Shown: positions 9,400-42,476, numbered from the stretch's first letter. The stretch is 64,000 bases of DNA from Euglena gracilis (GCA_039621445.1 CP154954.1:20446642-20510641), one strand, 5' to 3'. Notes: generated by a model not told the origin, from the letters alone. Numbers and translations: made by a program.

Positions 9400-10796
9400 C
9401 CAGATGAATGCTCACAACACTGGTGGCAACAGGAACTCACCAAATCCTCAATTGACAATTTGCTCGCCAAACTGCCCCCCAGGGATCAAGCCCGTTTGCT
9501 GGGGGTGTTCCCCCCCCACCCCCCCGCCCCCCCCCCCCCCCGCGTCCCCCCTGCATCCCGGATTTTGGCCGGGTACATTTTTTCGGTCGACTAAAGGAAA
9601 AGTACACACAAATTTTGTTGACGCCAAAGAAAACGAGTGGGGCCAGTTGGGCAATTCCCCCGCCCCCCGCGTCCCCCCCCCGCGCAGTGGTTTCGGTCAC
9701 GGTTGGATGGCATCCCCTCCCAACTTCGCGAACCACTGCATAATCAAACCAGTTGACTACTGCCTGGGCCCGAAATGGTGGCTGGGCTTGCAAATATCCC
9801 CGACTTCACCTGATGCACTTTGTGAAGGCTGCCAAAGTGCGGTGGATCCGTTCGGGGATCACTGGATGTGCTGCATCCGGAACAACTTCTCTCTGCGCCA
9901 CAACGCCGTACAGGACGCTCTTTTCACACTTTTGTCCAACACCGGCCAAGGGGTACAGAGGGAGGTCCCAGTTCCAAATCAACCCGATGGCAGTCTACGC
10001 CCTCCTGACCTGTTGTTGGCCAGTTGGCAAGATGGTCAACCAACAGCAGTCGACATTACAATTTGCCATTGCTGGCAAGCTTCAGAAAGAACAGCATCGA
10101 GAGAGCTTTGGCGCATATTCCTAAAGAGAAAAGAGACCAGCAAGCGCCTCAAGGAGGTTAGGCAGGGGTGGGGGGGGGCTGTGGACCCCCCCCGGTGAAG
10201 TTCACCGGTGAACGTTCACCGGGGGGGAGGGGGGGGTACTTTCGGCGGTGAAGTTCACCGGTGAAGTTCACCGGTGAACTTCACCGTTTTGATGGTTGGG
10301 GGTGAAAATTTCACGGGTAAAATTTTGCTCCTTTCCTCTCAAAATGGTCATTTTGAGGTTGATGCTTCATGGAATTTTATCGAAATTTCCGAAAACTTGC
10401 CTGAAATGCCATTTTTTGGCCATTTTTGGCCAAAAAAAAGTGCTCTCTTGGTGAACTTCACCGGTGAAGTTCACCGATGGGTTAGGCAGAGGGGGGGGGA
10501 GGTGGTCCGGGACCCCCCGGTGAACTTTCAAACGGTGAACTTCACCATAGGGGGGGGGGAGGGGGGTCAAAACGACCAAAGTCCACTGCCTGATCTCCCA
10601 AGTAACGGCCCGTGCAAAGCAGGAGGCTGGACTTTCACCATGTTGGCATTCGGAACCTGGGGAGGCGGCCTGGGTCCGGAGACGTCCAAACTGCTCGGTA
10701 GGATCATCAAACGAGCAGCTGCATGGCATGACGGTGAACAGCGAACGACGCGTCACGCCAAACTCTACCAGAGCATATCCCTAGCCCTCGCCCGAG
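9400..10796 (+). pseudogene. C-terminal CCHC + RLE region of a CRE-like non-LTR retrotransposon
   Basis: CEGC...DPFGDHWMCC, RHNAVQD, REVP, LRPPDLLL, AVDITI, K..KY, GWTF..LAFGTWGG. Interrupted by insertions at ~9500-9690 and 10153-10598. Confidence 0.9.
10153..10598. mobile_element. MITE with 3-bp TSD (GGAGGTTAGGCAG...CTGCCTGATCTCC), GTGAAGTTCAC palindromic subterminal repeats
   Basis: TSD caa/caa and imperfect TIRs. Partial relatives at ~4285-4420, ~14957-15346 and ~53264-53455. Confidence 0.85.
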
Positions 10797-10806
10797 GTAG
10801 AGGTGA

Positions 10807-11033
<227 letters not shown>

Positions 11034-11577
11034 GTACAAAGTAAAACATCTGTGAGGTAAGATGCGGCAGGGAAGGAGTGAGGGCAAAACCCCGCAACGG
11101 TGGTTCTTGCCGCGGTAAGTGTCTCCATCTCTCCGTTGTTGCTTCTCGTTTTGCTGCGTGCTGCTCCCCGCGGCTGGTGCTGATGTCATCGACTTGTTTG
11201 CTCGCCTGGCGTTCTGGTTGGCTTATCTTCTTTCTTCTGGCCTTTTGCTTTTACCATGTGGCATGCTTTGGTCGTAGCAGCTGCCAAACTTGACTCACCT
11301 CAATGCCAAAATTTTAAGGAAAGTGGCTTATAAAGAAAATTTCTGCCGAGCGAAGGCAATTTTATGCAAAAAATCAGAAATTGGCCATTCTTGTCACGAA
11401 TCTCTTAGGTATGGCAGTTTTTGAAACCACCCATCCGGATAGTTTTTCTCATTCGTAACCTAAATAAGAAGCGTTGAGATGCTAATTTGCCAAATTTGAG
11501 GCATGTGGAGCCTTTTGTGGCCCTCATTGGTGCCAGTTTATGACATTTTATGGACATAGAGGTGACATAGAGGTAGA

Positions 11578-11800
11578 GGGGGGTCGGCACACCCCTCCCC
11601 CCCCCCTCACCAACCCCCTCGCCACGCCATTTTACCCCCCCCCCCTTTTTAGACCCCCTCGCCACGCCATGTCAGGCCCGCCAAAGAAAATTTTCTTGGC
11701 AAACCCCCGCGCACCCCTCCCCCCCCCCATCCGGGACACCCTCGCCACGCCAAACCCCCCCCCCCTAGCCGGATACCTCGCCACGGCGTGCCGACCCCCC
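11578..11800. mobile_element. MITE with 3-bp TSD (GGGGGGTCGGCAC TIR), CGCCACG motifs
   Basis: TSD aga/aga. Absent from the paralogous region at ~2740. Confidence 0.8.
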
Positions 11801-11930
11801 AGAGGTAGAGGTAGACGTGGGTCAGATAGAGGTAGAGGACTTTGACCTCTACCTCTACCTCTATCCAGCCCTGACTCAGCACGTACCGAGCACACACAGC
11901 ACGCACCGCTGTACATGTTGTACATAGAAC

Positions 11931-12385
11931 GGAGGTTAGGCAGGGGTGGGGGGGGGGCCTGTGGACCCCCCCCCCCCCGGTGAAGTTCACCGGTGAACAT
12001 TCCCGGGGGGGGGGGAGGGGGGGGGTACTTTCGGCGGTGAAGTTCACCGGTGAAGTTCACCGGTGAACTTCACCGTTTTGATGGTTGGGGGTGAAATTTT
12101 CATGGGTAAAATTTTGCTCCTTTCCTCTCAAAATGGTCATTTTGAGGTTGATGCTTCATGTAATTTTATCGAAATTTCCGAAAACTTGCCCAAAATGTCA
12201 TTTTTTGGCCATTTTTGGCCAAAAAGTGCTCTCTTGGTGAACTTCACCGGTGAAGTTCACCGATGGGTTAGGCAGAGGGGGGGGGGAGGGGGTCCGGGAC
12301 CCCCCGGTGAACTTTCAAACGGTGAACCTCACCATAGGGGGGGGGAGGGGGGGTCAAAATGACCAAAGTCTACTGCCTGATCTCC
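11931..12385. mobile_element. MITE of the GGAGGTTAGGCAG family
   Basis: TSD aac/aac. Empty site catagaacgccccacgg at ~2851-2867. Confidence 0.9.
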
Positions 12386-13014
12386 AACGCCCCACGGAGT
12401 CTCTCAAGGACAACAATCGACAAATTTTGCACAGGGAAAAAATTGGGGGTAGGGGTCCTTGAGCCCCCCCCCCCCCCAATTGAATTGGCTGATTGGGGGT
12501 CTGAAGGAGCCCATTAGCCAAATAGGGGGGGGGGGGAGGGTAATGTGCCAGGGAGGGGGGGGGGGGGCGCGTGTGTTGTGCTTTCTTTCCGTTGGATGGC
12601 GTGTGTGTGTCGGGACCTAAGGGCTGTTTTGCTCCATGGATTCATATGGGTTTCGGTTAATTTTCATCTTTGGTCGCGAACAGATGGCTACACTGACGTT
12701 GGTGGCAAGGTTCCCGTTTTTTTTGTTTTACAACAAAGCAAAAAAACTTTCATGAGTAAAAAAACGGTTTAAAAACGGTTTTTTGTTTTAAAAAAGGGTG
12801 TTTTTTTAAAATAAAACACTACAAATAGGAAAAACCTGTTTTAAACAACTTGTTTAAAAACAGCCCGGGAACCTTGGGTGGCATATCAAGGAGAGGACAT
12901 GGGGGACAGGGTGGTTGGTACGCCATGGCGAGGGGGTCCGAATAGGGGGGGGGGAGGGAGGGTAAATGGCGTGGCGAGGGGGTCGGCGACCAAGGGGGGG
13001 GGAGGGGCGCAAGG

Positions 13015-14527
13015 CGGTAGACTGGGGGGGGGGGGTAGTGGGTAGTCGGCCGACTAGTCGGCCGACTACCCAATTGGTCCACCGACTAGTCCTAGTCGGT
13101 AGCTAGTCGGCGAGACAGGGGGGGGGGGTAGTGGGTAGTCGGCCAACTAGTCGGCCGACTACCCACTCTAATGTACTAACGGGTCAAAACCGCCGACTTT
13201 TAAGCCCCCCCCCATGAACAAAATCCAATGCAAACTAGTCGGTGGCTAGTCGGCGGTCATAAAAATGGTCTGTGGCGGGCCCAAATCACCCGGAAATGGT
13301 CCGGATGGGTCCAAATAAGTGTCTTACGCCTAAATAAACACCCCCAGATGGAAATCTTTGGTCAGTGGGGGGTCGGTGGGCCCTTGATGGGGTCCGGAGG
13401 GGTAAAAAACCAATGATGAAACAGGGATTACATTAAAATCCTTTAGAAATGCAATCTGCAATCTGCGTTTTGCATCACGAGAGGCAGAAAACTCCCCCCT
13501 CCACCCCAATCCGACCCCCCCCCTCAAATAACAAAATCCCTTCTGTGTTGGCAACATACTCGGGGGCTAATTCGTTTTTGTGGCTCACTTTGGCATAGGC
13601 GGGGGGGGCTCCGCCCCCCCGCCCGCACCCCCCCCCCCCCCCCCCCCCTCAAATAACAAAATCCCTTCTGTGTTTGCAACATACTCGGGGGCTAAGTCGT
13701 TTTTGTGGCTCACTTTGGCATAGGCGGGGGGGGGTGGGTGGCTCCACCCCCCACGCACTCCCCCCCTCAAATAACAAAATCCCTTCTGCGTTGGCAACAT
13801 ACTCGGGGGCTAAGTCGTTTTTGTGGCTCACTTTGGCATAGGCGGGGGGGGCTCCGGCCCCCCCCTCAAATAACAAAATCCCTTCTCTGTTGGCAACATA
13901 TTCGGGGGCTAAGTCGTTTTTGTGGCTCACTTTGGCATAGGCGGGGGGGGCTCCGCCCCCCCCCCCCCCCCCCCCCCCTCAAAAAACAAAAACCCCTCTG
14001 TGTTGGCAACATACTCGGGGGCTAAGTCGTTTTTGTGGCTTACTTTGGCATAGGCGGGGGGGGGCTCCGCCCCTCCGCACCCCCCCCCTCAAATAACAAC
14101 ATCCCGGCTATGTTGGCTATAGACTTGGGGGATAAGACCCTTTTTTTGTGCAAATTTTGACTTATATTGAAAATTCAATGGGGAGAGGTGTACTTTTGTC
14201 AAAAGTGGCCCAAAATGGACATTTTCCCCCAATTTTTTTTTGCATATTCACCCCCGATTGGGGGGTTCTGGAGCCATTTGGGTCGGTTTTGACCGGCGTT
14301 GAGGTGATTCAGACATTTTTTTTTACCAGGGGGGGGGGCTTAAAAGTCGGCGGTTTTGACCCGTTAGTACATTAGAGTGGGTAGTCGGCCGACTAGTCGG
14401 CCGACTACCCACTACCCCCCCGCCGACTAGCCACCGACCAATTAGTCGGCCGACTAGTCGGTGGACCAATTGGGTAGTCGGCCGACTAGTCGGCCGACTA
14501 CCCACTACCCCCCCCCCCAGTCTACCG
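13015..14527. mobile_element. Foldback-type element with ~200-bp TIRs built of TAGTCGGCCGACTA palindromes
   Basis: cggtagactggggg... / ...cccccagtctaccg. Arms at ~13015-13215 and ~14329-14527. No clear TSD. Confidence 0.8.
13521..14105 (+). repeat. Minisatellite: ~80-bp constant unit separated by variable G-run/C-run hairpin linkers
   Basis: ccctcaaataacaaaatcccttctgtgttggcaacatactcgggggctaagtcgtttttgtggctcactttggcataggc, 5 full copies plus one partial. Confidence 0.9.
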
Positions 14528-16320
14528 TTTGGCACTGGGGGGAGGGGTGTACCATGGTATCCAACAAAATTTTCGTTCAAAAAATCACGAAAATCCCCGG
14601 CGGCGTGACGAGGGGGTCCGGCTAGGGGGGGGGGGTAAATGGCATGGCGAGGCCCTCGGAGGGGGGGGGAGGGGTGTACCAACCCCCCACGGGAGTGTGA
14701 AGCGGGTATGGTTCATGTGGAGGGGGTGGGTTAACCAAGGTCGACAGGTGTTTACTGGGAATACGGGAGGTGGCAACCGGCAGATAGGTCGTGTCATTTG
14801 ACAGGTTGGTGTAGAAGCTCCAAACCAGTTGTTTAGAGATTTCTTTGGCCAGGAGTGAGAGTCCTTGCCACACTTCTGCTTGGGTTTGGCGCTGAAGCCA
14901 ACTCTCCCTTTGCCCTAACAAGGCTTTAAGGAGAGTGGAAATCAGAGAACGTCCTTGTGAAGTTCACCGTTTGAAAGTTCACCGGGGGGTCCCGGACCGC
15001 CCCCCCCCCCTCTGCCTAACCCATCGGTGAATTTCACCGGTGAAGTTCACCAAGAGAGCACTTTTTGACCAAAAATGGCCAAAAATGACATTTTTGGGCA
15101 AGTTTTCGGAAGTTTCGATTTAATTACATGAAGCATCAACCTCAAAATGACCATTTTGAGAGGGAAGGAGCAAAATTTCACCCATGAAAATTTCACCCCC
15201 AACCATCAAAACAGTGAATTTCACCGGTGAACTTCACCGGTGAACTTCACTACCGAAAGTACCCCCCCCCCCGGTGAACGTTCACCGGTGAAGTTCACCG
15301 GGGGGTCCCCCGCCGCCCCCCCCCCCCCCCGTACTGCCTAACCTCCGAGGACTTTGACCTCTACCTCTACCTCTATCCAGCCCTGACTCAGCACGTACCG
15401 AGCACACACAGCACGCACCGCTGTACATGTTGTACATAGAACGCCCCATGGAGTCCCTCAAGGATGATGTGGAATGTACATTTCTAACCCGCCGGAGCAC
15501 CATGTAACGTGACCCCCCCTATTTGTCCCCCCCCCCTAATTGGCCAGAGCCCAGGTGGCCAATTAGGGGGGGGGTTACTCATTTTCAAGGGAAAATGCCT
15601 TTATTGGGTGTTTACGGGGGTTCGCGACTATGAAGGACGGGGTCCAGGTGGCCAATTAGGGGGGGGGTTAGGGGTAACCCCCCCCTAATTGTCACCCCCC
15701 CCCCTAATTGGCCAGAAGGGGGGTCCGGGCCGCCCGGAGGGCGGCCAAATAGGGGGGGGGGTGTTGGTACATAAAAAGTGCACGCCGGTATATGTATGAC
15801 CCCTGATCCGCGAAAAAAAAATCGAAACAATAGTGGTGGTGGGGCAAATGGTTCGAAACTGTTGAATCTGGTTAATTTTTCAGAAGATTTCACCTGTGCA
15901 GCACAGCCACCTCGGGAAAAGGTGTCACAAAAACATTGGGGAAACATTTGCTCAGTTTTGTGCCAAAAGAAACTGCAACAATCCTTGTCCGGAGCCGACG
16001 CCGTTCGGTTTGCTTGCCAAACAAGGCCGCATGCAATGGCCTGGGCATGTGCATGCCCTTCAATAGGAGTGAAAACTCTCATTCCGACCAAAGAGTTTGG
16101 TGCCCTTCTCCAATGGACCCTGGGTGCTCCTGTAGTAAAATCGGATGAGGGAGACTTGGATGTCCACGATGTAGGAGTGCGCTTGACACAGCTGGCCACC
16201 ACCTCTTCTGCTGCCACCGCAACAACCTTACTCGACGGCATGGGGTGGTACAAAGCTTTGTCCTGAGCCTTGCGAGTTGGCTTCCCGGCACGTCGTGAAG
16301 AGAAAGCCGAGGATGGCACC

Positions 16321-17038
16321 CAAGGTTGACGGCTTGTTTTTTTTAAACAAAAAAAACATGTTTTTTTTGAAAAAATATGTTTTTTTAAAAAAAACGTGTT
16401 TTTTTGAAAAAAAAATTTTTTTAAAAAAAACGTCATGTACGGCTTAGGGGAAAAATTTTTTGCATTTTTTTTTTAGAAAAAAGTTCATTTTTTATCTCCG
16501 CAGCATTCATTTTTTGTTTTTTTGGGGGGGGTTTGAAAGCATGATTTTTTTGCACTAGAAAACACAGATTTGGAAATACTTTCACACAAAGAAAACTTTA
16601 GAGGGGGTGTTCCCCCCGTGACCCCTCCCTCGACCCGACCTAGGACCCTTTTCGGCCATTTTTTTTCTGAAAAACTTTGCCGGTGATGCCTAATTTGACA
16701 AAATATTCAGGTAGATTCCTATTTTTGAGGCATAAATTTTGCAAAATTTGGAATGGTGATGCCTAATTTGGTGTCAAAATGCTAATTTTAAGTTGGGGAT
16801 TCCTAATTTGGAGCCTAAAAAGGATTTTTTCCCAAAAAATTCGCTTTCGGTGATTCCTAATTTGGCCACCAAAAAATGTGATGTTCCCCCGTGACCCCCG
16901 ATGACCAAACCACCCCCGAAAATTTTTCTTCAAAAAATGGCCATTTCGCAAGGAAAAAGGTACATGTTTTTTTTGTGCTATTTTTAAAAAAAACATGTTT
17001 TTTTGTTGTTTTTTTTTTAAAAAAAAACATCAACCCTG
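16321..17038. mobile_element. hAT-like MITE (CAAGGTTGAC...TCAACCCTG)
   Basis: Perfect 8-bp TSD atggcacc at 16313-16320 and 17039-17046. Confidence 0.92.
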
Positions 17039-17149
17039 ATGGCACCCGACCCGGAGACGTGTTCATCACCCGGTTTGACGCCAATGGACCCGCTGCCATC
17101 GATGTCACTGTCCGGCACCCACTGGCATCGTCCAGGTCACCCCCAGCTC

Positions 17150-18864
17150 TGTGACAAGAACTGTGTTTGGGCCAAGTGTTGGGGGAGCCTGGGGGCGGGG
17201 ACCGCGGCGCCGAAGGCGCCGTGGTCGCCCCCAGGCCCCCCTAAAACCTTGGCCCAAAACACTGTTCTTGGTTTAAAAACGTGTTCAGCCCGCCAAATGC
17301 CTGCCCTGAAATTCGTGGTCATGAACACGTTTTCAATGAGGGCATCTGTGGCAATGACACATTTTCAATGAAGCCATCTGTGGTTAGGCACGTTTTCAAT
17401 GAGGGCATCTGTGGCAATGACACGTTTTCGATTAAGGCATCTGTGCTCAGGCACGTTTTCAATGAAGGCATATGTGGCAACCCTGAGTAAAAAGCAAAAA
17501 ACGCTGTCATGAAAAATCGGCGGGTGGTTGCGAGGCCGGGTGGTCCTCAACGAGTGAGGCGGGTCGGGGGCACTCTACAACACGACAGAAGGCTAGGTTG
17601 CCTTGGAGCACAACGAGACAGAGTGGCGGACATCACTGAACACGACACGCTTTACACAAAAAAGAGCCATACTTTGGTGGCCGCCGCAATCTTGGCAATG
17701 AAAATGATATGCCAAACCGCAGGCGTCACAGACAACTTTGTTCAGCTCCACACAATTTGGATTTTTGGGAATGGGAACACCACAAAAACCACATTTCTGC
17801 TGTTTTATAGGCAGTCGGGACACAGCACAAGGGACAGGGGGTTGGTCAGGGGAGGAAACGGAGCTGCTGACCACAGGAGCGGAACGTTGCTCGGCGGTGG
17901 GAAACACAGACGGAACATCGGTCAGGTCCTGATTTTCGACCGAGTGTTTTGCGGAATGCCCGAGCGACGGCATTCACGTATGTCTGAAAAGAGGTTGCCG
18001 AACGATTCCCTGAAACGAACAAAGTTCCCGACTGCTGCTCACGTTGAGCCACACATTGTTCAAAGACGCTCGCCTCATCGAACAACAGGCTGGGTTCCAG
18101 CTCCCATCCCGTCCAGGCAACAAAGAAAGCATCCAGCTCAGGATAAGAGGCTTGCCGATGTTGACACAGTTTGGCAAACTCCAAACAGTTGGCAACAGCA
18201 GCAAGCTCTGCACCTACGGAGCCGGACTTTTTCTTTGTGTTGCCCTGTGCCAGCAAGGTGCCATGAAGGGGGTCAACCTTCGGCTTCTTGGCATCTTGCT
18301 GGTATACCGCGAGAGCAGCCAGGAACAGTTCCGTCCTAGGGGGAGGTGGTAAAAGACCATTCACAAAGTTAGCCGTGCGTTTCGCCATAGTGGGAGGGCT
18401 GCGGAAAAAGGGTGGGGGTGACACGTTTTCAATGAGGGCATCTGTGGCAATGACACGTTTTCAATGAAGGCATCTGTGGTTAGGCACGTTTTCAGTTTTC
18501 AATGAGGGCATCTGTGGCAATGACACGTTTTCAATTAAGGCATCTGTGTTCAGGCACGTTTTCAATGAGGGCGCCGTTTCTTGGGTCCGAATTTCACAAA
18601 TTCGCGTTTTTGACCCCTTGCGTGAATCATGACCACGAATTTCAGGGCAGGCATTTGGCGGGCTCTGAACACGTTTTTAAACAAATTGTGGCTGAGCCCA
18701 GATTTCAGCCTGAAAACGTGTTCAGGGGGCCCCCTTCGGGAACCCCCTGGCTGAACACGTTTTCAGGCTGAAATCTGGGCTCAGCCACAATTTGTGTATA
18801 GAAACCGTGTTTGGGCGAAGATTTAAAACTTTTAACGTCTCGAAATCGGCCCAAACACGGTTTC
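17150..18864 (-). mobile_element. Family G TSD-less hairpin-ended element carrying a gene
   Basis: Terminal GAA-loop hairpin at 17156-17269, TTC-loop hairpin at ~18681-18794, second hairpin at ~18799-18864. Inverted repeats at ~17278-17330 and ~18620-18675, plus ~31-bp tandem units. Inserted at gctc^aagt. Confidence 0.8.
17593..18388 (-). pseudogene. Element-borne gene: helical N-terminal domain plus PHD-like finger, frameshifted near 17935
   Basis: ATG at 18388, preceded by a pyrimidine tract + CAG acceptor. C-terminal CGFC...CDAC...YHFHC...FC pattern. Confidence 0.65.
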
Positions 18865-19798
18865 TACTACAAAAAAGAGGTGGCGTTCCGGACGCCGGTT
18901 CCGTCCGAAGGACGGAACCGGCGTCCGGAACGCCAGGCTTTGGACAGAACCGGCGTCCGCCACCTCTTGTTTAAGCCGGCGTTTTAGAGACGCCGGGCTC
19001 AGGACAGAACCGGCGTCCCCAACCTTCGGCCAAAGGACACTCCCAGGACCAATCTCCGACCACTGATCTGCAATGTCACACCACTTTGCACTTCACCAAA
19101 TTCCGGCGATCGCGAGGGTATTTCTGGCTGTGTCAATCGTCCAGGTATAAAATCACCCCTCGATCGAAAGCTCTTTTCATCAGACGACTGGCGATCACCA
19201 CCAAATTCAGCCACGTCGCCTGGAGCTATTTTCTGTCACTGGGGAATCCTAATTTCACAACTCTGGTGCCCCCCCAAGGCCCTCAGGTCGTTGATTCGAA
19301 GAGGAAAAACGTTTCTGTAGGGTTTATTCAGCATCTTAAACCAAAAGTCACTGAAGATTGCTACAAGTTTCGACTCAGATTCTGGCCGATCCGACCATCG
19401 CGAGCGTATCTCGGGCTGCGTGCAACGTTAGGGTACCAAGTTACCCCTCGATCGAAAGCTCTTTTCAACAGACGACCAGCGGTGCTCATCAGATCTTTCC
19501 ACGCTGCACGGTACTCTATTTCCAAATCTGGGCCAATTTTCACGAGATTTGGATATCCACCCTACTGGTCCCCAGATGGCAAAATTCATTGTCCTTGATG
19601 GTTGAAACACTCATACCAGCACCTTAGGGCCACTTTTGGGCACTTTTGGTGACATTTTTAGGAATGAAAATCGGACGCCGGGCTTTGGACAAAACCGGCG
19701 TTCCTAACGCCGGGCTTTAGGACAGAACCGGCGTCCGGAAAGCCCGTGGGGGGGGGACGCCGGTTCTGTCCTGAGCCCGGCGTCTCAAACGCCGGCTT
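18865..19798 (-). mobile_element. Family A TSD-less hairpin element, second copy
   Basis: Homologous to 5600-6562, with the same ends tc^tactac...ggctt^aa. Confidence 0.85.
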
Positions 19799-19828
19799 AA
19801 GTGGACAACTGGCACCACCGACAGGAGG

Positions 19829-20240
19829 CAGGGTTGACGTTAAAAAACAACAACAAAAAACATGTTTTTATAAAAAAACCCGCAAAAAAACATGTTTTTT
19901 GAAAAAGCAAAAATTGACCTTTTTCCCTGTGAAATGGCCATTTTTTGAGGAAAAAGTTCTAAAGTCATTTTTTTTGGTCATCAAAGTGACGTTTTCTTTC
20001 GTTTTCCCAGACCCTTCATCCAAAAATACTAAAATCATGGTTCATGTGAAAACCATCACCCTTTACGGACTACGAAGTTGCAAAGATAAAAAAAATGACC
20101 TTTCTCCTTTAAAAAAGATTCAAAAAAGTTTTCACCCAAACCCTCCGTGGCATTTTTTTTTGTTTTTTTATAAAAAATCATATTTTTTTAAAAAAAGACA
20201 TGTTTTTTTTGTTTCAAAAAAAAACAAGCTGTCAACCTTG
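19829..20240. mobile_element. hAT-like MITE (CAGGGTTGAC...GTCAACCTTG)
   Basis: Perfect 8-bp TSD acaggagg at 19821-19828 and 20241-20248. Confidence 0.92.
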
Positions 20241-21520
20241 ACAGGAGGAAGACAAAATTGCCAAGTATGGAGACCCTTGCAAGCGGCGTGGCTGGACCTT
20301 TGTTCCCTTGGTCATGGACTGCTATGAGGCATGAGTGAAGCAGGACAGGGCTTCATCTCCACATGCATCCGCCTTCTGACCAGCCAACACAACGGCTGGG
20401 AGATGCGGGGTGTGGAGGCCAATGTGTGGCAGGGAATTGGAATGGCATTGATGCGAGAGCTAGCCCGACAATTGGCTTGGGGGCAATGCCCTGAACAGCT
20501 TCTGCTGTGGTGACGTAAGTACACATGCCCCGTACCAGTCGTAAATGGATATTCAGCCTTTCAAATGACCGTAGCGGTCTCTGCACCTTCTACCGGCCCC
20601 TGGGCTCCCTTGCAACTTGTGATTTGCCACTTCTCAAGCCCGATAAACACAATTCTCACCGAAAACTTCCACGCAAGGATGTGTCAGTGCAGGAGCCGGA
20701 GAACGCGGGAAGCACGCAGCGGGACGACGGATGACGGAAGGCAGAAGCAGCGGGCGGACGGAGCACAATGCCCTCTGTTGCTCATGTACGCTAGCTAACC
20801 ACCAGGAACGCCTGGGGGCTACGGTGGCCACACGAGAAAGTGGGTTTTGCTCATTTTCAATCTCACAACGCTCACGTCAGCTGTAAATAACTCTCACCAC
20901 CTACGGTGTAAATGTTGTGCATAGAACACTCAACCGAGTCCCCTCGGGATGACGTGGAATGTATATCTCTGACCCGCCGGAGCACCATGTACACAAAAGG
21001 TGCACGCCGATTATATCTGGTTTACCACCCCCCCCCCCTAATTGACCCCCCCCCTAATTGACCAAACGCCCTGGGGAAAATTTTTTCACCCCCCCCCTAA
21101 TTGACTGCCCGAGGGGATTCCGTGCTGAAGCACCCCCTAATTGACGGTACCCCCCCCCTAATTGACGCCCCCCCCCCTAATTGAACCCCCCCCCCTAATT
21201 GACCAAAAGGGGGGTCCCGTGGAGAGGTCCCACGGTCAATTAGGGGGGGGGGAGGTGGTAATACAGTTTTTTTGCATTTAACTTCTCCGAGCTGTTTAAA
21301 ACCCAACCCTGGCTGCACCCAAGGTAAACAGGCAAGGCCTGTGAAAACGGCCAAAGTTCGTACGCACCCGGCCGGGGGCTGCGGTTCAGACTGTCTGTTC
21401 CTCCCCGGGGAAACCCGGGTGGCCCAGCGGGGGCTCTGGCCCCTTCTGGGTTGCACTGGAGTGTGGCGCACTGGTGTTGGGGATCGCTATCGACTGGGTC
21501 ACTGGCCAGTCACCTAAACG

Positions 21521-22203
21521 CAGGGAGGTCGCCGTGGAGGCACCTGCGCATGGTGGCTCAATGTACAGTCAGGCCCATGTAAGCCCACGTGAAATCAGAC
21601 GAAGCTCCTTGGGGTGAGCATGGCCTCGGGAAAAAGGCGATCCATGAAAAGTGGTGAGCCCCTCCTCATCCTGAGGGTGACACGGCATGAGGAGGATGGG
21701 TGCCAGCTCCGCACGGGTGTAATCCTCGGCCTTGACGAGCCCATCTCCCCCCAGCCACGGTGAGGGGTCGGAAGGAGCAACGGTCAGGAGGGAGGTTCGG
21801 CAGCCACCCCCCCCCCTGGTGGTCGGACCCCCTCGGCACGGCCAAAAGGGGACCCCCCCCCCTGTCGGCCGACCTCCTCGGCACGGCATGCTGAACCATA
21901 CCAATGAATTTTCCTTTGGGAAATTCGGGCTGTCCGCCACGGTGGACCCCGCCTGGGGGACCAACGGTCCTCGTCAGACGTGCCAAACCTCCGAGCGCCG
22001 TGTGTTGTGGGGCGCCCTTGGGGCCGAGTCCGTGGTGACGGGGAGTGTAGTTTCTCTGTCAGGTGTTGTCGCGTACGCCGGGGCAACCAACCTGTGGCCG
22101 TTTGTGAAGAAGCTTGCATCCTTTGTTCTGCAGACAGGTTGTCACCAACAACGGCTTGAAACGCCTGCAGTATGACCTCAGAGCACGCAGCAAAGCTGTC
22201 TTG
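21521..22203 (-). repeat. Inverted diverged copy of ~1365-2172 (retroelement-derived)
   Basis: Reverse-complement homology, e.g. ACSEVILQAFQ..LSAEQRMQAS and DPSPWLGGDGLVKAEDY. Confidence 0.85.
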
Positions 22204-22226
22204 ATGTGTTGCTGGTTTTGTGGGAA

Positions 22227-22248
22227 TCCCCCCGCTTCCCCCCCACAG
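22227..22248 (+). promoter_or_regulatory. Probable SL trans-splice acceptor of the phosphatase gene
   Basis: C-rich pyrimidine tract tccccccgcttcccccccacAG ending 16 nt before the ATG. Confidence 0.6.
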
Positions 22249-22264
22249 CACAGCAGCCCCCGCC

Positions 22265-25200
22265 ATGTCCTCCACCCCAGCCGACGTCCGTGCCGCATGC
22301 CTCAAGGCGGCCCGCCCCGACGCCAACCACGGGCTGCCCCCCGCCGAGATCCGCTGAGGGCGCTGCAGGAAGGGCAGAAGGGCCTGTCAACGGCCGACAA
22401 ATGGTGGCGCAAGGTTTGCGTTCTCCAGCCGCGTGTTGGATCCCGGAAACTTTAAACGCAAACAGATTTGTAAGCAAAGCACCCAAAATTTCCCCAAAGC
22501 GTGAAGGGTGTGGCTTTTCACAACGGGCGCTCTTTGAAATCTTCCAACAAAAATTCATCAATGATGTCCGATCCCACCCCAAGAGGATCCTTGTCTGCGG
22601 GCATCCAGATCCGCCCGTAGGGGGCTAGGGGGCTGGGGGGCTGGGGGGGGGGATTGGGTGGACCCTGTTTGATTTTTTTTTGTGCAGGCTGTGTGCAATG
22701 GTTTTCTTCATCAACACATTCTCAATTTTTACAAAGTATTCTTGAGAGGATTATTTCAGGGGCTGGCGAAGAACAACGATGAAGAATTTTGCAGCTGTCC
22801 AGCTCATCTTGGGGAGTTGCGAGTTGAGTTGCTTTTTTGCTGCTCACTTCCTGTGCTTTCGCATGGCCCTCCCCCTTTCCATGGCTGCACATTGGGACGA
22901 AGGACGACGCCCTGAAATTGCCACTCTTGGATGATTTGAATGTGAAGCCCAGGACCACCCCCACACAGGCGGAACCCTGGGAACCTGGATATCTGGACAC
23001 CACACATTCATTTATCCCTTGTGTGATCCCACCCCCTGGAGGGAGACGGGTGAGTGTATTTTCAAAAGTGGGTGGGTGGGTTTGGACCGCTGCCCCCCCC
23101 CCCCTTGGGGTGGTGTGCGCCAGGGCAGTAGGTTGGACAGAAAATTCTTAAGGGTTTTCGGCTGATTTTCGGGCGATTTTGGGTGGCTGAGTGGGTGCTG
23201 TGGATTGGCAGGTTTTCAAAAAAAAAAGTGGGTGGATGGGTTTTTGCCCAGGAAAGTGCCAGGGGGTCACAACGTGAAAAGCGCCGCTCCCTTCCTTAAG
23301 GGGCTAAGTTTTAGGTCAGAAGTTTCTTTCGGCACCTTTTTTTCAGAAGGAATTTTCCTGCACTATCCTGCTCCGTTGGAAACTCCAAGGCCAGGGCAGG
23401 GGGGACATGCAAGTTGCATAGTTTGCTTTTTTTTGCATACTGAATTTTTCTTGCATTTTTTTTGCATTTTTTTGCATTTTTTTGCATTTTTTTTTTTGCA
23501 TTTTTTGCATTTTTTTTGCATTTTTTTTTTTTGCATTGGGTATTTTGCCCCCGGTCAGCAGGGGATTATTTTTTTTCCAAGGGGAGGGTGCGAAGCAAAT
23601 TGCAGAATTTTTGAAGCCCCGCCGGCCACCGCTGTGTAGGGCCTGGGTGACGGGAAGGTGGCCGTAGTGCTGGGTGGTGCTGCCGCGGACCGTGATCAAT
23701 GCGGGACTGAACAAAAGCAATCCGGGGCCTGCCCAGTGGGGAACTAGCGACTTTGCATCCTGGTGGTGCTGTCCAAATCTCATCACTAAACATGCCCACA
23801 AACCCCTGTGCTCACCAACCTATCCTTAATCTCAACCTATTCTTTTGTCTCCTGTCTCTGCACCTGCTGATAATTATTCTTCAATCTTTTTTTATTTTTC
23901 ACTCCTAATTTGTAAATACTTTTCTCAAATAAATACACTTCTTCTGTGCTTCGTTTTCTTGACCTTTGAATCAGCTATATTTCAGTCGGGCCTAATGAAA
24001 ATGAAAATGACCATGCATTGAGGGGAAATGTCTGAGAGTCCAAAAAGAAAGGCCAGGGGGCCATGTTTGAATTGAAAATTGAACCTTCTCGGTCAATTTT
24101 TGGCGCTGAAAATCATGCGGAACAATTTTATCCCCCTCCCCCTGTATATGCTAAAATACAACTGCAGCGACACTGATACACATAAAAATGGTATTGAGGC
24201 AATAGAAGTAGGTACACGCTGCCCAAACATTCTTTTTGCCCCTCCAAAAACAGTGCCTCCAAATCAACTCCCTGAGAGCCTAAATTCTGCCCAAATATGA
24301 GGCTCTTGGCATTGTTGGTACACATTCAGGAAATGTCGTAAGATGTGTGGGAGTGCAGAGGCAGACAACAGCTGCCCAATGATCTGTATGACTTTCCCAA
24401 TGCTTCTGGTTTCAGTTCATTGGGGGCAGGCTTTTGCTTAAGGGATTGCAGTTCCCCCGGGGGGGGGGGGGGGCTGGGCTGCAGCTAGTCCAAATCTGGC
24501 GAGTGGGATTTCTAGCAGACCCCCCCCGGGGGAGTCTGCTAGCAGGGCTAGCTAGTGGAAAATTTTTTTCCAGTGCCCGGCGCTTCGAATTTTTTTTGGG
24601 ACCCCCAAAAATGGCCCAAAATGCCCGTTTTTGGCCATTTTTGGGAATTTTTGGAACAAAATCAGCCAAAAACCTGTTAAAAACCTCATTTTTCCAGTTC
24701 GGGGGACCCCCGGACCCCCCCCCCCCCAGGGGGGAGGGGGTCTAGCTATCCCCCTTTTTCCAGTGTCTAGCCGATTGGCTACCCAGTCCCCCCCCCCCCC
24801 CCCGGGTCCTTAAGCAAAAAGCCTGATTGGGGGGTTATTATTTCGGCCGTCAAAGTTGGAGGCGAGGTGAATGTTTTTTTGGGTGTTTTCATCGACTTTT
24901 CCCCTGCAAGTTTTTAGGAGTAAATGGGTGTCAAACAAACAAACCGGAGTTTGGTGTCAAATGTGGTGTACTAAAGATCTCTTATTCCAAACCAACAAAT
25001 AAAAAGCACGAGGAGAGCACGACCCTGCCTTGGCTCTTGGGCCCTCTTGTGAAATGCAGGGAGTCCCCCCATGTTCATCTAACCCCCCGGAAGGGGACCC
25101 AGTTATTGAAAGATTTCATTTGTTTATTTTCAATCGTGGGTTGCACCGTTGCTGGCCAGCCACTGCCTCGGACTTACCCCCTGGCCCGAAACAGTTTCGG

Positions 25201-27703
25201 CCCCCCGTTTTGGCTTTGGGAATCATGGAAAAATTTTTTTAGTTTTTTTTTTAACCCCCCCCCAACGGCCCCGCCCCCCCCAGGGCCTCTCCCAGTTTTC
25301 CAGTGTCTAGCTATTGGCTACCATACCTGTGACCCCCCCCCCCCCCCTCGGAAGCCTGAAGTTCTGTTCTTTTATGTTATCCCGTGTTTTCACTAGGGTG
25401 TTTCTCCCCCCCACAGCAGACAAATGGGTTGAGAGTTGTTAGGGTACTTTTTACCTTTTCCAACCAAAAGAGCACACTGACCCACCCCCAAATGCAGGAG
25501 TCTTTTTCCCCATTTTCATCTAACCCCGGAAGGTGGTTTTGCCCTCGTGAAATTTCCGTTCTAGCCACCCCCCCCCCCTGGACTTCTACCCCGAAAACTT
25601 TCTCCGACCCCCCGAAGACCCCGGAGACCTCTGGGACCCTCAGGACCGTTTCCGTTTTTCCCAACTTTCTAAACTGCGGCGCGCCGGGGGGGTCTGTCAG
25701 CGGCGCCCCGGCACAGTGGAGATCGAGGACGAGACGGGGGACGTGCTAGCAGTGCTCCCGAAGGTGATCGATGCCATCGACGGGGCGAAGGCGGCCGGGG
25801 AGCCCGCCTACGTGCACTGCGCCGCCTCGGTTTCCCATCCTGGAAGCCCAATGCCCGCACCCGGGTTTGACTGACGATGCGTGACCAGGCCAGCACAAAA
25901 CCCAGGTCATTCTTGCCTACACTCCCGGGCATTCTGAACCCCCCTCCCCCGCGGTTGGTCAAATTCAGTCTGGTCCAACCCCACCTGCATTACTAAATCC
26001 CCAAATGATACCACGGGGTTTGCTCCTTTTCGCCCGAGGTCCCGGTCCAAAAGGGGGCTATTATTTGGGGGAGTATTCCCTCCTGAAATCTTTTGAAGTC
26101 AAAAAATTCGAGGTTGAAAAGGGCCAAAAAAGAAGCCATTTAACGGATTTGAGGTCAGGAAGAGTGCTTGAAGATGCATTTGCCCAACAAATGTCTCTCA
26201 AAAGAACAGAAATACGGGGGGTATTGTTTTTTGGGGGGGGTGGGAACAGGGATTTTTTTAAGTTTGGACCCCGGGGGGGGGAAGGGGGGGTAGGGTGGGT
26301 GGGTCCGGCCGAGCCCCCCCCCCGGGGGGGGGGGTCCGGGGGTGGGATATACTTTTCGGCGCCGAAAAAATTCTATTTTTAGCACTTTTCGCGATTTTTC
26401 GGCCATTTTTTGTGGGTCCCCCCCCCCCCCCCCCCCCCCCCGGGGGGGGCCCGCCCGCGGGTGGTCGTGGGTGCGTGGGGGGACCCCCCCCTCCCCCCCG
26501 GTCTTAAAAAAACCCCTGGGTGGGAAGGGTTGTACTTTTTGCCACCACTTCCAGCCCGAGAGGGCCAGTGTTCGCCATCGCCTACGTGATGAAAGAGAAG
26601 GGGCTGAACGCCGCTGATGCTACACGGTACGTGGCGGAGCGCTGGGGCGCACCCAAGCCCCAAAGCTCGATTGAAAGTCCCTTGTCCCCCCCCCCCCCGA
26701 TGGTGCCAGACAGCCCCCCCACCCCAATAGTTTCCCCCCTGATAGTGTCCCATACCCACCCTGTGGTCGAGCTGGGTATGGGACACTGTTGGGGGGGGCA
26801 TGGCACATTACATCACAACACAATGCTAGAATTCCGATTCGATCACGAATGAGGTATTTGTGTCTTTTTTTGATGTTTTGAAGTAGCCCAGTGCCCTGGA
26901 TGTGCTTCAACCACCTGACGAAACCTCACTGAATGCAGTTTTGAAACGCCAATGAACGCAGTTCTGAAGTCCTGAAGGTCACAGCCAGGCTTCTTTTTAA
27001 GGCCCCCAAAGGGGCTCCCCTTCGCAACCAGCCCAGCAGGCATTCCCAGTGGGCAGGGGTCACAAAAAAAAATCCATTAGACAAAACAACAACAACAAGA
27101 ACAAACCATCATTTCATCGTTCTTGACCCCTGCTTGAAAATTAGGGATTATTTTGGCAAATATTTTTCAGGTTGGCCTCTGAAAAATACAAACAATACAA
27201 ACAAAAAATTTCCGATTATATTCTGCCGGTTTCTTTTTTCAGAATGTCCGGCTCGGTTCCGGCCTTGCCCTGTCCGGGTGTTGTGTGCTTAAAGAAAACC
27301 CATGTCTCCAATTGGCGCAAATCAAATGGTTTAGGGAATAGGATTCATGGCAGGGCGGGGTGATCCAACAACCAACTCAGGAGGGCCACCCCTCGTGAGT
27401 GAAGCCAGACAAACTAACAAAACAAACAACTCATTTTACTTAGTTTGTGATTCTTCAGTTTTCTCGGTATTTGGTTGTTGATGAGGCTCCCAGCACCTAT
27501 TTCCCCTGTGAAATAAGTTTTTTTTGGTATTTGCTTTCCCCAAGACTCCAGCTGTTATCAACCACTTTCTGTGGGGGCCAGCTCTTTCTCCGCACCACCA
27601 CTCTCGTTGTTCAGTGAGCTGCCATGGGTGCTTGCTGGCAACATTCCCTTGTGACGGTTTCATCGACCAACTGATCACATATGAGAAGCAGCTCCAGAAA
27701 TAA
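22265..27703 (+). CDS. Dual-specificity protein phosphatase (multi-exon)
   Basis: Exons 22265-22352, 22877-22946, 23688-(unresolved), ~24284-24322 (tentative, KYEALGIV), 25716-25836, 26560-26646 and 27636-27703. They give PAEILPWLHIGTKDDA..LNVKTVINA..VEIED..VHCAASVSRGPVFAIAYVM..WVATFPCDGFIDQLITYEKQLQK*, with a CX5R P-loop. Confidence 0.9.
24427..24825. mobile_element. hAT-like MITE (CAGGCTTTTGCTTAAGG...) in a phosphatase intron, CTAGC motifs
   Basis: 8-bp TSD attggggg. Related segments at ~41680-42245. Confidence 0.9.
26247..26518. mobile_element. hAT-like MITE (CAGGGATTTTTTTAAG...CTTAAAAAAACCCCTG) in a phosphatase intron
   Basis: 8-bp TSD ggtgggaa. Confidence 0.9.
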
Positions 27704-30116
27704 GTCCAAAGGGGGCTGGGAACCCTTCCCAGGCTGTATTTTGCAATGCCGACTCACTGGGCTCATGCGTCAAAAATGGGCCCAGCGCTGCCCCGCCCAG
27801 GGTTGACAAGGAGGTCTCTGGGGCCAAAATTATGCGATGATGGTGCTTTCTACGCTTTCAATGGCGAGTGCCAAAGTAACTTGGGCCACACACATAGATT
27901 CACTGAACACCTGTGCGACCCCCCCTGGGGGTGGGTTTTCGAGAGTGGGTGGGTGGGTCGGGGCCTCTGGACCACAGCCAAAATCGTCCCAAAACGCTGG
28001 AAAAAATTTACGTTCAGCAAGGCCAAAACCCTGACCCATGCGCACCCTACCCCTCAGCGGGGGATTGTTTTACTTAAGTCTCAGACCCCCCCCCCCCCAG
28101 GGCCGCCCCCAGGAGGGAAGGAGGGAGGGAGGGTAGGTCATGATCCCCTGGAGGGGGGTCAGATCTTTCCTCCCCCTGTAAAAATACGCACAAAGCGCCA
28201 GAAATTTTTGGGGATTTGAAATTTGCCCCCCCCAAATGGCATTTTCGGGCATTTTTTTTCTCACCGACTCTATCAAAAATATTGTGCAATGCACACACAA
28301 ACACATATCTTATGGCGGGTTCAACCCCCCCCCCCCCCAAGAAGGGGAGCAGGGGTGCCTACATCATTTTCAGTTTGGTGACATTGGGGGTCCCCAGGGA
28401 CAAGCCGAGTGCTTAACCCCCCCCTACGGGGGGCCCTCCCTCTTTTTTTTGTGCGAAGCAACAAAAAAATTTGGACTCAAGATTGTCTCCCCCAAGCCCC
28501 CCACCCCCAAGGTGTGCGTTGCACAGAAATGCTCTCACCAGTAGGAAGGATGTGGTTGCTTCGGTGCCTGACTGTTGTTCAGTCAAATCCAGCCTGCTCC
28601 TCACCATGTTGTCTGCGGCACCTAAGCGCCAAGGGCAGCATGCCAGGTAAGCAATGCCGCATGTGCGGCCCCTCAATGACCCCCCCATTGGGTGTCGGCC
28701 GCCGTGTCAGTATATGATGTTGTGCGTGTACGGCGTACAATGGTGCCTCTGCAGGGTCTGATACTTTGGGGTGGTGGAATGTGGACCATCAAATTAAAGA
28801 GGGCTGTCACCGCCCCCCACCTCCCACGCTTCCTCCCTGATGCCTGAAATGGTCGGGGTCCCTTGTGAAGCCAGGGTCTCTGGGTCAGGAGGTCAGGAAG
28901 TTGTAGCAAACCGGTTCTCGAATTGCCAGGGACAAATGATGGGCGAGCACCCTGCCGTCACAGCGAGCTCCTTCCGCAGCCTCTCAACCCCTGCCTCCGA
29001 TAGGCTGAATTTGACCAACCTGGGGGGGGAGGGGGGGGGGCAGGGCAGAACGGGAAGGCCTGGTGGGGGGGGGTGGTCGACCCCCTCCGACACCCTGGTT
29101 GTTTGGCCGACTCCCGTTCTGCTTTGAGGGAGGGCCCCTCCCCGGGAAGGTGGCCCAGACCTGTACTGCGCTGGAAAAACCGGGCCACATACCACCCCCA
29201 CAAAACTGTCCTCTACCCACTTTTCTCTCACAGGGACCTGATAGTCTGGCTCCTGCCCCGTCTCTTGACAGTTTTTCCCCCACATTTTACAGCAATTTCC
29301 CACAGTGAAGAAAACTACAAACACTTTTTCCAGGTTTCTGGTCATGAACATGTGTGAGCTTTATTTTGGATTCTTCTGTTGGCGGCAAGCAACTGTCATT
29401 TCCCCCTCTGATCGAGACCCCCTCGGAAATTGTCCTCTGGTCCTGCACTCGCTTGTGCGTCCTCACAATGCGTCCTCACAATGCGTCATCACAATGCGTC
29501 ATCACAATACGAGGAAAGTCGTCTTTAATAATGAGGAAAGGTGCTGAAAACCCACCCCAAACACCATGGTCCCCAACCATTACAACGCAAGCTTTTGGGC
29601 ATTGGCTTCGGAAGTTATCATTGTTTTGCACAATACCTTAAAGAGGGGACGTGTTTCGGGTTACCTGACAGTTAGGCCCTGGGCCAATCCGTGTCACCCT
29701 GGCTCGGTCACCCCCCCCTGGTGCATTGGGACAGTGCTGAAACAGGTTGTGTGTTCAAGGATTTCCTTTCTGTCCCAAACATATTTAAAAGTATTCATCT
29801 CAGTTTGAATCTTAAGCCCCCCCCCCCAGTTGTTTGTTCACAAAAACAAGGGAACGCCGTCACACAAGACGCTGTATCAGACCTTCATTTGGGCCCTTGT
29901 TGCAAGTGTTAGGCCGGATGACCTCCTTCCTGGCCTGACCCAGAGCCTTTCTCGCGCTTTCTTGCTGGCCTCCACACTGCTTTTCTAACGTCTATTTTTT
30001 TTCTTCACTTGTTGCAAGGGGGGAATGAAACTATGTTTCTTTTGCAGCCTTTGCATTTTTTCGCTTTTGGTGTTTTTCTTGCATGTTTCGAAACAGTGTC
30101 CATGCATGAATGCATG

Positions 30117-30301
30117 CATGTATGTATGTATGTATGTATGTATGTATGTATGTATGTATGTATGTATGTATGTATGTATGTATGTATGTATGTATGTATG
30201 TATGTATGTATGTATGTATGTATGTATGTATGTATGTATGTATGTATGTATGTATGTATGTATGTATGTATGTATGTATGTATGTATGTATGTATGTATG
30301 T

Positions 30302-30341
<40 letters not shown>

Positions 30342-30796
30342 ATGTATGTATGTATGTATGTATGTATGTATGTATGTATGTATGTATGTATGTGTGTGTA
30401 TGTGTATGTATGTATGTGTATGTGTATGTATGTATGTATGTATGTATGTATGTATGTATGTATGTATGTGTCTGTCTGTATGTATGTGTATGTATGTATG
30501 TATGTATGGTATGTATGTGTCTGTGTGTATGTGTGTATGTATGTGTGTATGTATGTATGTATGTATGTATGTATGTATGTATGTATGTATGTATGTATGT
30601 ATGTATGTATGTATGTATGTATGTGTGTATGTATGTGTGTGTGTATGTATGTATGTATGTATGTATGTATGTATGTATGTATGTATGTATGTATGTATGT
30701 ATGTATGTATGTATGTATGTATGTATGTATGTATGTATGTATGTATGTATGTATGTATGTATGTATGTATGTATGTATGTATGTATGTATGTATGT
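30117..30796. repeat. (TATG)n microsatellite
   Basis: Direct reading, with a few TG interruptions. Confidence 0.97.
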
Positions 30797-31649
30797 AGTA
30801 TGCATACACACCCACACACTTGCGTTTTTTTTTTGTTTTCTTGCTCGTTTTTGTATTTTTGTGCCGCTTTTTTCAAAGTCCACGTTGCATTCTCTCCCCC
30901 CGTTTGTTGTTCACTTCTGTGCTCTTGATATTTTCACAATCAATCTTCACATTGTGCGATTTGTGATGAAATGCGTAGATGGAGCCCCTCTTTGTTGAAA
31001 AATTGAGACAGTAATCATCTCATTAGAGTTTTTGGGGGCAGAAGTAGAGTATTTGCAAAAATAGTTTCACAAGGGTTTTTTGCAGACCATTCAGGTATGT
31101 GCTTCCTCTCGCGCAGTATTGTGCAATCAAGGGCTCTTCAAGAAAAATACATGAGAATTATTGAATCATTGAAACGTTTTCGGAAAGGGGTGGCAAGTCG
31201 ACAAACAATTGCATGCGGTGATGGCTCCAGATTAACCCTGAATATTCAACGATTGCTCATTTTGTGGTAATTTCCTAACTTTTGCTCTTTTGCTCTTTTG
31301 CTCTTTTGCGTCCCCAAACTTTTGCAGTCTAATGTGTCCATTTCGAAAATTGATTGAAAATTGGCATGGCGGCCGTCCACATGACAGGGCAGGGGATGAT
31401 ACTTCGGTCTGCATCGTTGATTCTGATGAATTTGACCCCCTGGGAGGACAAATATCACTGCGCTGGTTGAGTGCCCTCATTCCTCCTCGCAACAGATCAA
31501 TGTCATTTCTTGCAATCTGCCCTGTAGCGACCATAACAGCCGATGTGTGATGGGCCCGAAGCGGAAAGGGGATCGGCCCTCACGTTGATGGGGAGGAGCC
31601 TCCCGCATTTTTTTTGTGGTCCTTTTAATACAATTCGTCTCAGAAAAAT

Positions 31650-33678: not shown

Positions 33679-34039
33679 CGTGTGTGCTGTGCGTGTGTGC
33701 GTGTTGCGTGTGTGGGGTGTGCGTGTGTTGGGTGTGGGTGTGTGCGTGTGTTCGTGTGTGCGTGTGTGCGTGTGTGCGTGTGTGCGTGTGTGCGTGTGTG
33801 CGTGTGTGCTTGTGTGCGTGTGTGCGTGTGTGCGTGTGTGCGTGTGTGCGTGTGTGCGTGTGTGCGTGTGTGCGTGTGTGCGTGTGTGCGTGTGTGCGTG
33901 TGTGCGTGTGTGCGTGTGTGCGTGTGCGTGTGCGTGTGCGTGTGCGTGTGCGTGTGCGTGTGCGTGTGCGTGTGCGTGCGCGTGCGCGTGCGCGTGCGTG
34001 TGCGTGTGCGTGTGTGTGTGCGTGTGTGTGTGCGTGTGT

Positions 34040-34106
<67 letters not shown>

Positions 34107-34137
34107 TGGGTGTGTGGGTGTGTGTGTGTGTGTGTGT

Positions 34138-34188
<51 letters not shown>

Positions 34189-34668: not shown

Positions 34669-42476
<7,808 letters not shown>

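Follow-up and report, generated by a model that had tools for sequence, protein, structure and literature searches.

The 64,000-nucleotide stretch of Euglena gracilis DNA analysed here (GCA_039621445.1, CP154954.1:20446642-20510641; the window, with positions counted from its first letter) carries, upstream of an expressed dual-specificity phosphatase gene, a short element of low GC content at 19829-20240 (30% GC, against 51% for the whole window) that lies within a decayed repeat (Table 1). It is very probably a hAT-like MITE (miniature inverted-repeat transposable element) that was inserted as DNA into this repeat and does not work as an intron at the locus. Five further elements are listed with it, and a first-pass annotation had proposed that such MITEs are ready-made introns of the nonconventional kind found in euglenids.

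The ends of the element, CAGGGTTGAC on the 5' side and GTCAACCTTG on the 3' side, are complementary as DNA at 9 of 10 positions (CAGGGTTGAC compared with CAAGGTTGAC, the reverse complement of the 3' end), and the odd pair becomes G.U in RNA. An exact copy of one 8-mer abuts each end, giving the order ACAGGAGG, CAGGGTTGAC ... GTCAACCTTG, ACAGGAGG, and several copies of a AAAAACATGTTTTT-type palindromic motif (repeat family D1, 5 copies) occupy subterminal positions near both ends. When the element is folded as RNA together with its 8-nt flanks, the terminal stem runs from the first through the last element base and leaves the flanks unpaired; pairing beyond the CAG motif is provided by the 10-bp terminal stem plus an extension in this minimum-free-energy fold (z = -2.86; equally good in 1 of 100 shuffles). 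Pfam detects no coding capacity in the element, and a BLAST search against the window finds a family relative at 16321-17038 in the opposite orientation, with identities of 91% in a 79-nt match and 81% in one of 101 nt.

Table 1. Features at and around the 19829-20240 element, in window coordinates (a dot marks features without strand; introns are numbered along the phosphatase gene).
Feature	Position	Strand	Details
MITE body	19829-20240	.	412 bp, non-autonomous, hAT-like
Terminal inverted repeats (TIRs) of this MITE	19829-19838 and 20231-20240		10 bp
Left target-site duplication (TSD) copy	19821-19828	.	ACAGGAGG; exact 8-mer also at 20241-20248
Right TSD copy	20241-20248	.	ACAGGAGG; exact match to left copy
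Hypothetical RNA excision unit, proposed earlier	19826-20245	+	3 nt + MITE + 5 nt = 420 nt
Decayed host open reading frame (ORF) with frameshift	20242-20510	+	C-terminal KxxKY...G..F.P-type domain of a repeated element
Repeat with inverted ends	18882-19800	.	~920 bp; 21 bp upstream of the left TSD copy; interrupts the same host sequence
MITE, same family as 19829-20240	16321-17038	.	718 bp; ends CAA...CTG; exact duplication ATGGCACC
MITE	24427-24825	.	399 bp; CAG...CTG; exact duplication ATTGGGGG; inside composite phosphatase intron 23732-25713
MITE	26247-26518	.	272 bp; CAG...CTG; exact duplication GGTGGGAA; inside phosphatase intron 25837-26559
MITE	45426-45552	.	127 bp; CAG...CTG; duplication 7/8
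Element	51711-52595	.	885 bp; 12-bp inverted ends without mismatch, CAGGGATCCTCA; flanked directly by a 7-nt repeat within a G run
Expressed dual-specificity phosphatase gene	22249-30010	+	RNA joints, DSPc Pfam matches, open joined frame
Phosphatase exons	22249-22352, 22877-22946, 23688-23731, 27-nt micro-exon (transcripts), 25714-25836, 26560-26648, 27638-27723, 28599-28751, 29892 onward	+	
Intron 1			GAG-CTC; stem 6 bp; register as annotated
Intron 2			CAG-CTG; contiguous stem of 3 bp, with pairing at 10 of 11 initial positions; register as annotated
Intron 3	23732-25713		composite
Intron 4	25837-26559	+	CTG-CAG; ATC, CTGGAAG ... CTTCCAG, CCCGA; 7-bp stem +4 to -6; register as annotated; not slidable
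Intron 5			CAA-TTG; stem 5 bp; register +2
Intron 6	27727-28601 in the +3 register	+	CAG-CTG; TCC, CAGGCTG ... CAGCCTG, CTCCT; 7-bp stem; 3-nt junction repeat
Intron 7	28752-29891	+	3' untranslated region (UTR); begins CAGGGTCTGATAC; 10-12-bp terminal stem; best register 3/4, not 3/5

An empty site in DNA identifies the element as a DNA insertion: in DNA run X1 a joint 19819>20240 skips 420 nt, with 9 ambiguous letters, and retains a single copy of the 8-mer; this joint most likely stems from other copies of the host repeat. Bins with MITEs have a summed DNA word depth of 2.2e5 to 6.9e5 and exon bins one of 188-404, a roughly 1000-fold ratio that is not equal to copy number and that fits high-copy families. 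Elements of the hAT type are marked by 8-bp duplications and YARNG-type ends, and all six listed elements start CA(G/A)G(G/C), in agreement with a YARNG-type start. Mobility would have come from a hAT transposase, supplied in trans, which would have cut the element and pasted it into the decayed, highly repeated host; a staggered 8-bp cut followed by fill-in would have left the duplication ACAGGAGG.

The host of the element is represented by 28 bp upstream of it and by the sequence downstream, where one frame translates as DKIAKYGDPCKRRGWTFVPLVMD and then shifts. Paralogues of the host lie on the minus strand at 57639-57860 (tblastn E 9e-5) and 3505-3726 (E 2e-8); both carry the motif PGD...IDVT...KxxKY, which we take to have the appearance of a restriction-like endonuclease (RLE; PD-(D/E)xK). 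Pfam assigns the host ORFs to no family, even at E 10, and a protein atlas holds no usable match for the 61-aa host piece. The RLE label given to the host ORF in the first-pass annotation is thus without Pfam support and is plausible at the level of the motif carried by the paralogues. The same annotation had held that cutting 3 nt ahead of the element and 5 nt behind it removes it together with one TSD copy and restores the RLE frame. Such a cut does take out exactly the element and one copy, and the frame is restored, but this holds for any pair of cuts within a duplication; the 420 nt are in any case divisible by 3, and no stop interrupts the frame across the MITE.

The surroundings are a transposon graveyard rather than a working gene. 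The same host sequence is interrupted a second time, just upstream, by a repeat of ~920 bp (18882-19800). It shares 96.5% identity with 5644-6564 and 96.8% with 59957-60739, which makes three copies at about 96.5%, and its termini match in inverted orientation. The inverted ends of this repeat measure roughly 50 bp, and GC-rich hairpins lie inside it, among them a perfect inverted repeat of 18 nt (19719-19736 / 19755-19772).

Reads were mapped on 15300-29900 from raw RNA runs (X21 and X24), probable RNA contigs (X15) and DNA contigs (X1); the RNA runs carry the same species label, and the joints listed are 15 of 544. Among these 15, no RNA joint from X21, X24 or X15 falls at 19825/20246, where the proposed excision unit would be joined, and none falls at any of the four MITEs in 15300-29900; the sole joint listed at the 19829 element is the one from DNA run X1. 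In the two bins that span 19683-20656, RNA depth stays between 0 and 0.57; the phosphatase exon bins have 10-18. The site is thus almost untranscribed and the element ends in TTG, which is why we do not regard it as an intron at this locus. Three observations weigh against our reading of the element. No hAT transposase is found by Pfam in 556 of the 701 window ORFs of at least 55 aa (those of at least 125 aa window-wide and those of 55-124 aa from 16488 to 63998, the other 145 being short ORFs in 1-16444), so the hAT assignment is carried solely by duplication length and end motif. Natural introns of a 'CAG-nnn' class exist (6.6% of all natural E. agilis introns; PMC12501133, Dataset S7), so the TTG end does not by itself exclude splicing. 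Rare excision of MITEs from RNA, finally, may be compatible with a list of 15 of the 544 joints.

The six elements had been described as ending in CAG...CTG or a one-base variant and as carrying 8-bp TSDs. The ends are as described, four elements having CAG...CTG and two a one-base variant; the four perfect-ended elements start with CAGG and finish with CCTG, and each of the two variants retains one such end. The duplications are exact in four of the six (16321-17038, 19829-20240, 24427-24825 and 26247-26518) but match at 7/8 at 45426-45552, and the flank repeat at 51711-52595 is 7 nt. A scan for inverted ends matching at least 8/10 and flanked by an exact non-palindromic 8-bp repeat returns 11 candidates, where 30 block shuffles yield 0.4 on average; the shuffles served as control, since the reversed sequence keeps structures that combine an inverted repeat with a duplication and is unsuitable. 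Four of the 11 are CA(G/A)GG elements and the others are AT-rich or lie within long palindromes. A stricter scan (inverted ends 10/12) misses four of the six MITEs, and palindromes at 10.2-15.2 kb dominate its output.

The terminal signals of euglenid nonconventional introns have been defined by knock-ins in E. gracilis as the code 5'-N3CDG-/-CH'GN5-6|R (Nomura et al. 2025, PMC12501133). The donor spacer is strictly 3 nt and the acceptor spacer works best at 5 nt; in EaNC-INT1 every tested single substitution within CAG or CTG caused a splicing defect, and synthetic 50-bp introns with the features of the code only, 12 complementary bases and a following purine were spliced (PMC12501133). The consensus in E. 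gracilis reads CCAGG from +3 through +7 and CCTG from -9 through -6 (PMC11170887). In E. agilis the code fits 61.2% of nonconventional introns and leaves 38.8% outside, and 84.4% of introns have junction repeats (PMC12501133). Since the code is 3 nt, CAG...CTG and 5 nt, a CAG...CTG element with an 8-bp duplication fits it, and its removal would be scarless.

In the 19829 element the donor side conforms to the code (AGG, then CAG), as does the acceptor side in spacer and purine (ACAGG, then A); the 3' motif at -8 to -6 is TTG, outside CH'G, and the element fails the strict code. The MITE at 24427 has all sequence elements of the code on the transcribed strand (N3 GGG, CAG, CTG, N5 ATTGG, then G), and so does the MITE at 26247 on the plus strand (N5 GGTGG, then G). 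Two further MITEs are followed by a pyrimidine on the plus strand, and the relative at 16321 is off the code by its CAA. That splitting an 8-bp duplication restores the host is the trivial half of the arithmetic 3 + 5 = 8, as it holds for any such duplication. The other half is a real correspondence between two facts known independently of each other: the spacers of the published code sum to 8, like the duplication, and the MITE ends CAGG...CCTG equal the E. gracilis consensus. A hAT-type element is therefore matched in three features, namely CAG/CTG, the fourth base, and spacers that add up to the length of the duplication.

The nearest verified introns are those of the phosphatase gene, which is recognized from its RNA joints, from two weak DSPc Pfam matches on short ORFs of two exons (profile 47-85 and 86-120, contiguous) and from the joined exons, which are open in frame and assemble an H-C-x5-R active-site loop across 25836>26560; intron 25837-26559 splits this loop. 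Motif searches for PPP- and PTP-type phosphatases gave nothing useful. Six RNA joints (22352>22877, 22946>23688, 23731>25714, 25836>26560, 26648>27638 and 27723>28599) are each backed by 39-93 reads in X21, by 25-48 in X24 and by one RNA contig, and by none of the DNA contigs. The sequence of a loose end that follows 28751 recurs at 29892 (33 reads in X24, one X15 contig) and yields a seventh intron. The stop codon lies in exon 27638-27723 and the last two introns are thus in the 3' UTR. The loose end before 22249 finishes ATTTTTTTTC, with an acceptor at 22248/22249, and is presumably spliced-leader-like, as in euglenids. Transcripts include the 27-nt micro-exon between 23731 and 25714, which makes the third intron composite. 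The micro-exon has no exact match in the window, the nearest being ~25582-25608 with two small indels and one substitution. In an X1 DNA contig, 52 letters replace 452 nt of the window (25176-25627), which suggests allele or strain variation of ~400 bp inside intron 23732-25713.

None of the seven supported introns is of the GT-AG type, and in five of them 3 nt are left unpaired before a stem that starts at +4, and 5 nt are left unpaired behind its partner at -6, as the first-pass annotation had described for the introns of this region. The seventh, with its best register at 3/4, deviates from the published spacer rule; its start CAGGGTCTGATAC resembles MITE ends, the exon junction lying 0-2 nt, not 3 nt, before CAG. 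No 8-nt junction repeat occurs in any of the seven (slides of 0, 1, 1, 0, 3, 3 and 2), and in an 8-mer test at the chosen registers the five 3/5 introns score 1, 3, 1, 4 and 4 of 8 against 2 expected. The termini of introns 1, 2 and 7, the 5' end of intron 4 and the 3' end of intron 6 fall in bins of single-copy depth, with high-copy sequence nested inside. The phosphatase introns are therefore not young MITE copies, lacking 8-nt repeats and having single-copy termini. The terminal inverted repeats of the verified introns measure 6-11 bp, much as the MITE ends do; no BLAST homology between the two extends beyond CAGG in a search of the MITEs against the window, which was not directed at the introns. 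An old MITE origin of the phosphatase introns is neither supported nor excluded by the window data.

The proposal that euglenid nonconventional introns have a MITE-like origin dates from 2014 (PMC3935182) and was repeated in 2016, 2018, 2024 and 2025. The first-pass annotation had taken this link to have been made in general terms only, which does not hold: the 2024 review already calls the CAG/CTG at +4-6 and -8-6 a TIR and describes the junction repeats as TSD-like (PMC11282704). That review contains neither 'hAT' nor '8 bp'. A search of the literature, covering few subscription journals, returned no euglenid paper that links nonconventional introns to hAT or to an 8-bp duplication, and the sole paper in it with both 'nonconventional introns' and 'hAT' concerns barley MITEs. 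The point that 3 + 5 = 8 thus sharpens a published hypothesis and is apparently not stated in the literature searched. Nor does that literature hold a description of the family of the 19829 element for euglenids; the 2014 paper stated that euglenid genomes had so far yielded no identified transposable elements (PMC3935182). A published case that bears on the point is a recently gained gapC intron (intron 4) in one E. agilis strain (ACOI 323), which has 8-nt direct repeats at its junctions, longer than in any other intron of that study, and was read by its authors as the mark of double-strand-break repair (Milanowski et al. 2016, PMC4770533). Such a repeat is exactly what an origin of introns from 8-bp-duplicating MITEs predicts, and it constitutes one published data point in favour.

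As to where euglenid nonconventional introns come from, and why their spacers follow the odd 3/5 rule, the MITEs of the window allow more than one answer. That hAT MITEs with CAG...CTG ends and an 8-bp TSD are ready-made introns, and that most nonconventional introns of euglenids historically stem from them, is possible but doubtful. The match between the code and the 8-bp duplication predicts that a copy with perfect ends, once inserted into an exon, would be removed from RNA without a scar. This proposal draws on the spacer sum of 8, the CAG/CTG requirement and the splicing of synthetic introns (PMC12501133), on the extension of the consensus to CAGG/CCTG, like the MITE ends (PMC11170887), on the share of E. 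agilis introns with junction repeats (PMC12501133) and on the 8-nt repeats of the new gapC intron (PMC4770533); within the window it is favoured by the two of six MITEs, at 24427 and 26247, with every code element on the transcribed strand and by the length of the terminal inverted repeats of the verified introns. The same window speaks against it in the 8-nt repeats, present in 0/7 introns, in the 8-mer scores, in the single-copy depth of the five intron termini named above, in the lack of a MITE joint among the RNA joints listed, in the 3/4 spacing of intron 7, and in the MITEs themselves, two of six being off the code at their ends and two more having the wrong following base. The sequence logic of the annotated claim, consisting of the published code, the consensus and the gapC repeat, stands, but the RNA and the introns of the window lend it no support and the 19829 element itself ends in TTG. 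The MITEs may be the source of these introns, which the window neither shows nor refutes. Coincidence is an alternative of slightly greater, though still limited, weight: introns would arise by double-strand-break repair with short fill-in, or by conversion of older introns, and the MITEs would be ordinary passengers. CAG...CTG with 8 bp is the usual look of hAT elements everywhere, the gapC authors themselves read their 8-nt repeat as repair (PMC4770533), all four MITEs in 15300-29900 lie within intron interiors or dead repeats, where transposons are found in every eukaryote, the neighbouring introns vary in their motifs (GAG-CTC, CTG-CAG, CAA-TTG and twice CAG-CTG), and more than a third of E. 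agilis nonconventional introns lie outside the code (38.8%; PMC12501133). Coincidence has more difficulty with the agreement of three independent features, trinucleotide, fourth base and spacer sum, and with junction repeats in 84.4% of introns, where roughly 44% are computed for chance one-base slides.

It is improbable that the MITEs within the phosphatase introns are nested, twintron-like units, removed separately before or beside the host intron; the MITEs at 24427 and 26247 do both carry the sequence code on the plus strand, yet a joint for either is absent from those listed, and the host introns have terminal stems of their own and need no inner excision. In its fullest form the proposal of a MITE source, which we regard as tentative, would have the 3/5 spacer rule matched to the 8-bp hAT duplication, exonic insertions being erased from RNA, today's introns being the fossils of hAT MITE bursts, and the gapC repeat being a TSD and not a repair scar. 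If hAT-like MITEs were the source, the 3/5 rule would gain a simple rationale in the scarless removal of transposons at the level of RNA, and the question of intron origin would become testable with existing data. The 19829 element as it stands is one more copy of an ordinary transposon; the idea builds on a published hypothesis and is worth a genome-wide test, and it is not yet a finding.

Among known systems, the element shares with the hAT MITEs of the Ac/Ds type an 8-bp TSD, short inverted ends CAGG(G/C), small size, lack of coding sequence, multiple copies and an empty site in DNA; it differs in that neither an autonomous partner nor a transposase is seen among the Pfam-scanned ORFs of the window. 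The maize Ds element, itself of the hAT family, reportedly acts as a de novo intron (a finding attributed to Giroux et al. 1994) and shares with the proposal for Euglena a hAT-family insertion that is removed from RNA; its removal is said to be spliceosomal and imprecise and to use cryptic sites. With euglenid nonconventional introns (PMC12501133) the element has in common, on the plus strand and bar one base, the 3 nt, CAG, a complementary stem, 5 nt and a purine; it differs from them in having TTG instead of CH'G, in lacking an RNA junction among those listed and in being barely transcribed, and it is inserted DNA of high copy number, whereas the verified introns nearby have most of their termini in single-copy sequence. 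The Introner elements of Micromonas, Aureococcus and others resemble the proposal in that a transposon brings part of the splice signal and the duplication, which Introners recruit for a splice site, makes removal exact; they use the spliceosome, GY-AG sites and 3-nt duplications, whereas the proposal involves the nonconventional machinery guided by a terminal stem (PMC11282704).

The palindromes that dominate the stricter scan belong to a cluster of long palindromic and tandem structures at 10200-15250, with hairpins centred on CACCGGTG near 10260, 12050 and 15040, copies in inverted orientation at 13046-13160 / 14385-14497, and tandem units of 99-118 bp at 13514-14136. Next to it, 15300-15786 has the top RNA depth of 15300-29900, on both strands (about 22-23 in X21) and beside C-run loose ends at 15307-15331; these are probably repeat transcripts. 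A 5.7-kb segment is duplicated at 99.4% identity (1-5747 and 54136-59880), with further pieces at 61337-62958, 7160-7867, 11020-11579 and 12386-12913, and the copy at 54-60 kb contains an RVT_1 fragment (54740-55066, E 1.2e-5). Long microsatellites occur as (ATGT)n of ~700 bp (30102-30802), (TGTGCGTG)n of ~530 bp (33688-34217) and (TATG)n/(TATC)n of ~420 bp (39249-39694); long homopolymer runs of G and C are frequent, and many RNA reads end there.

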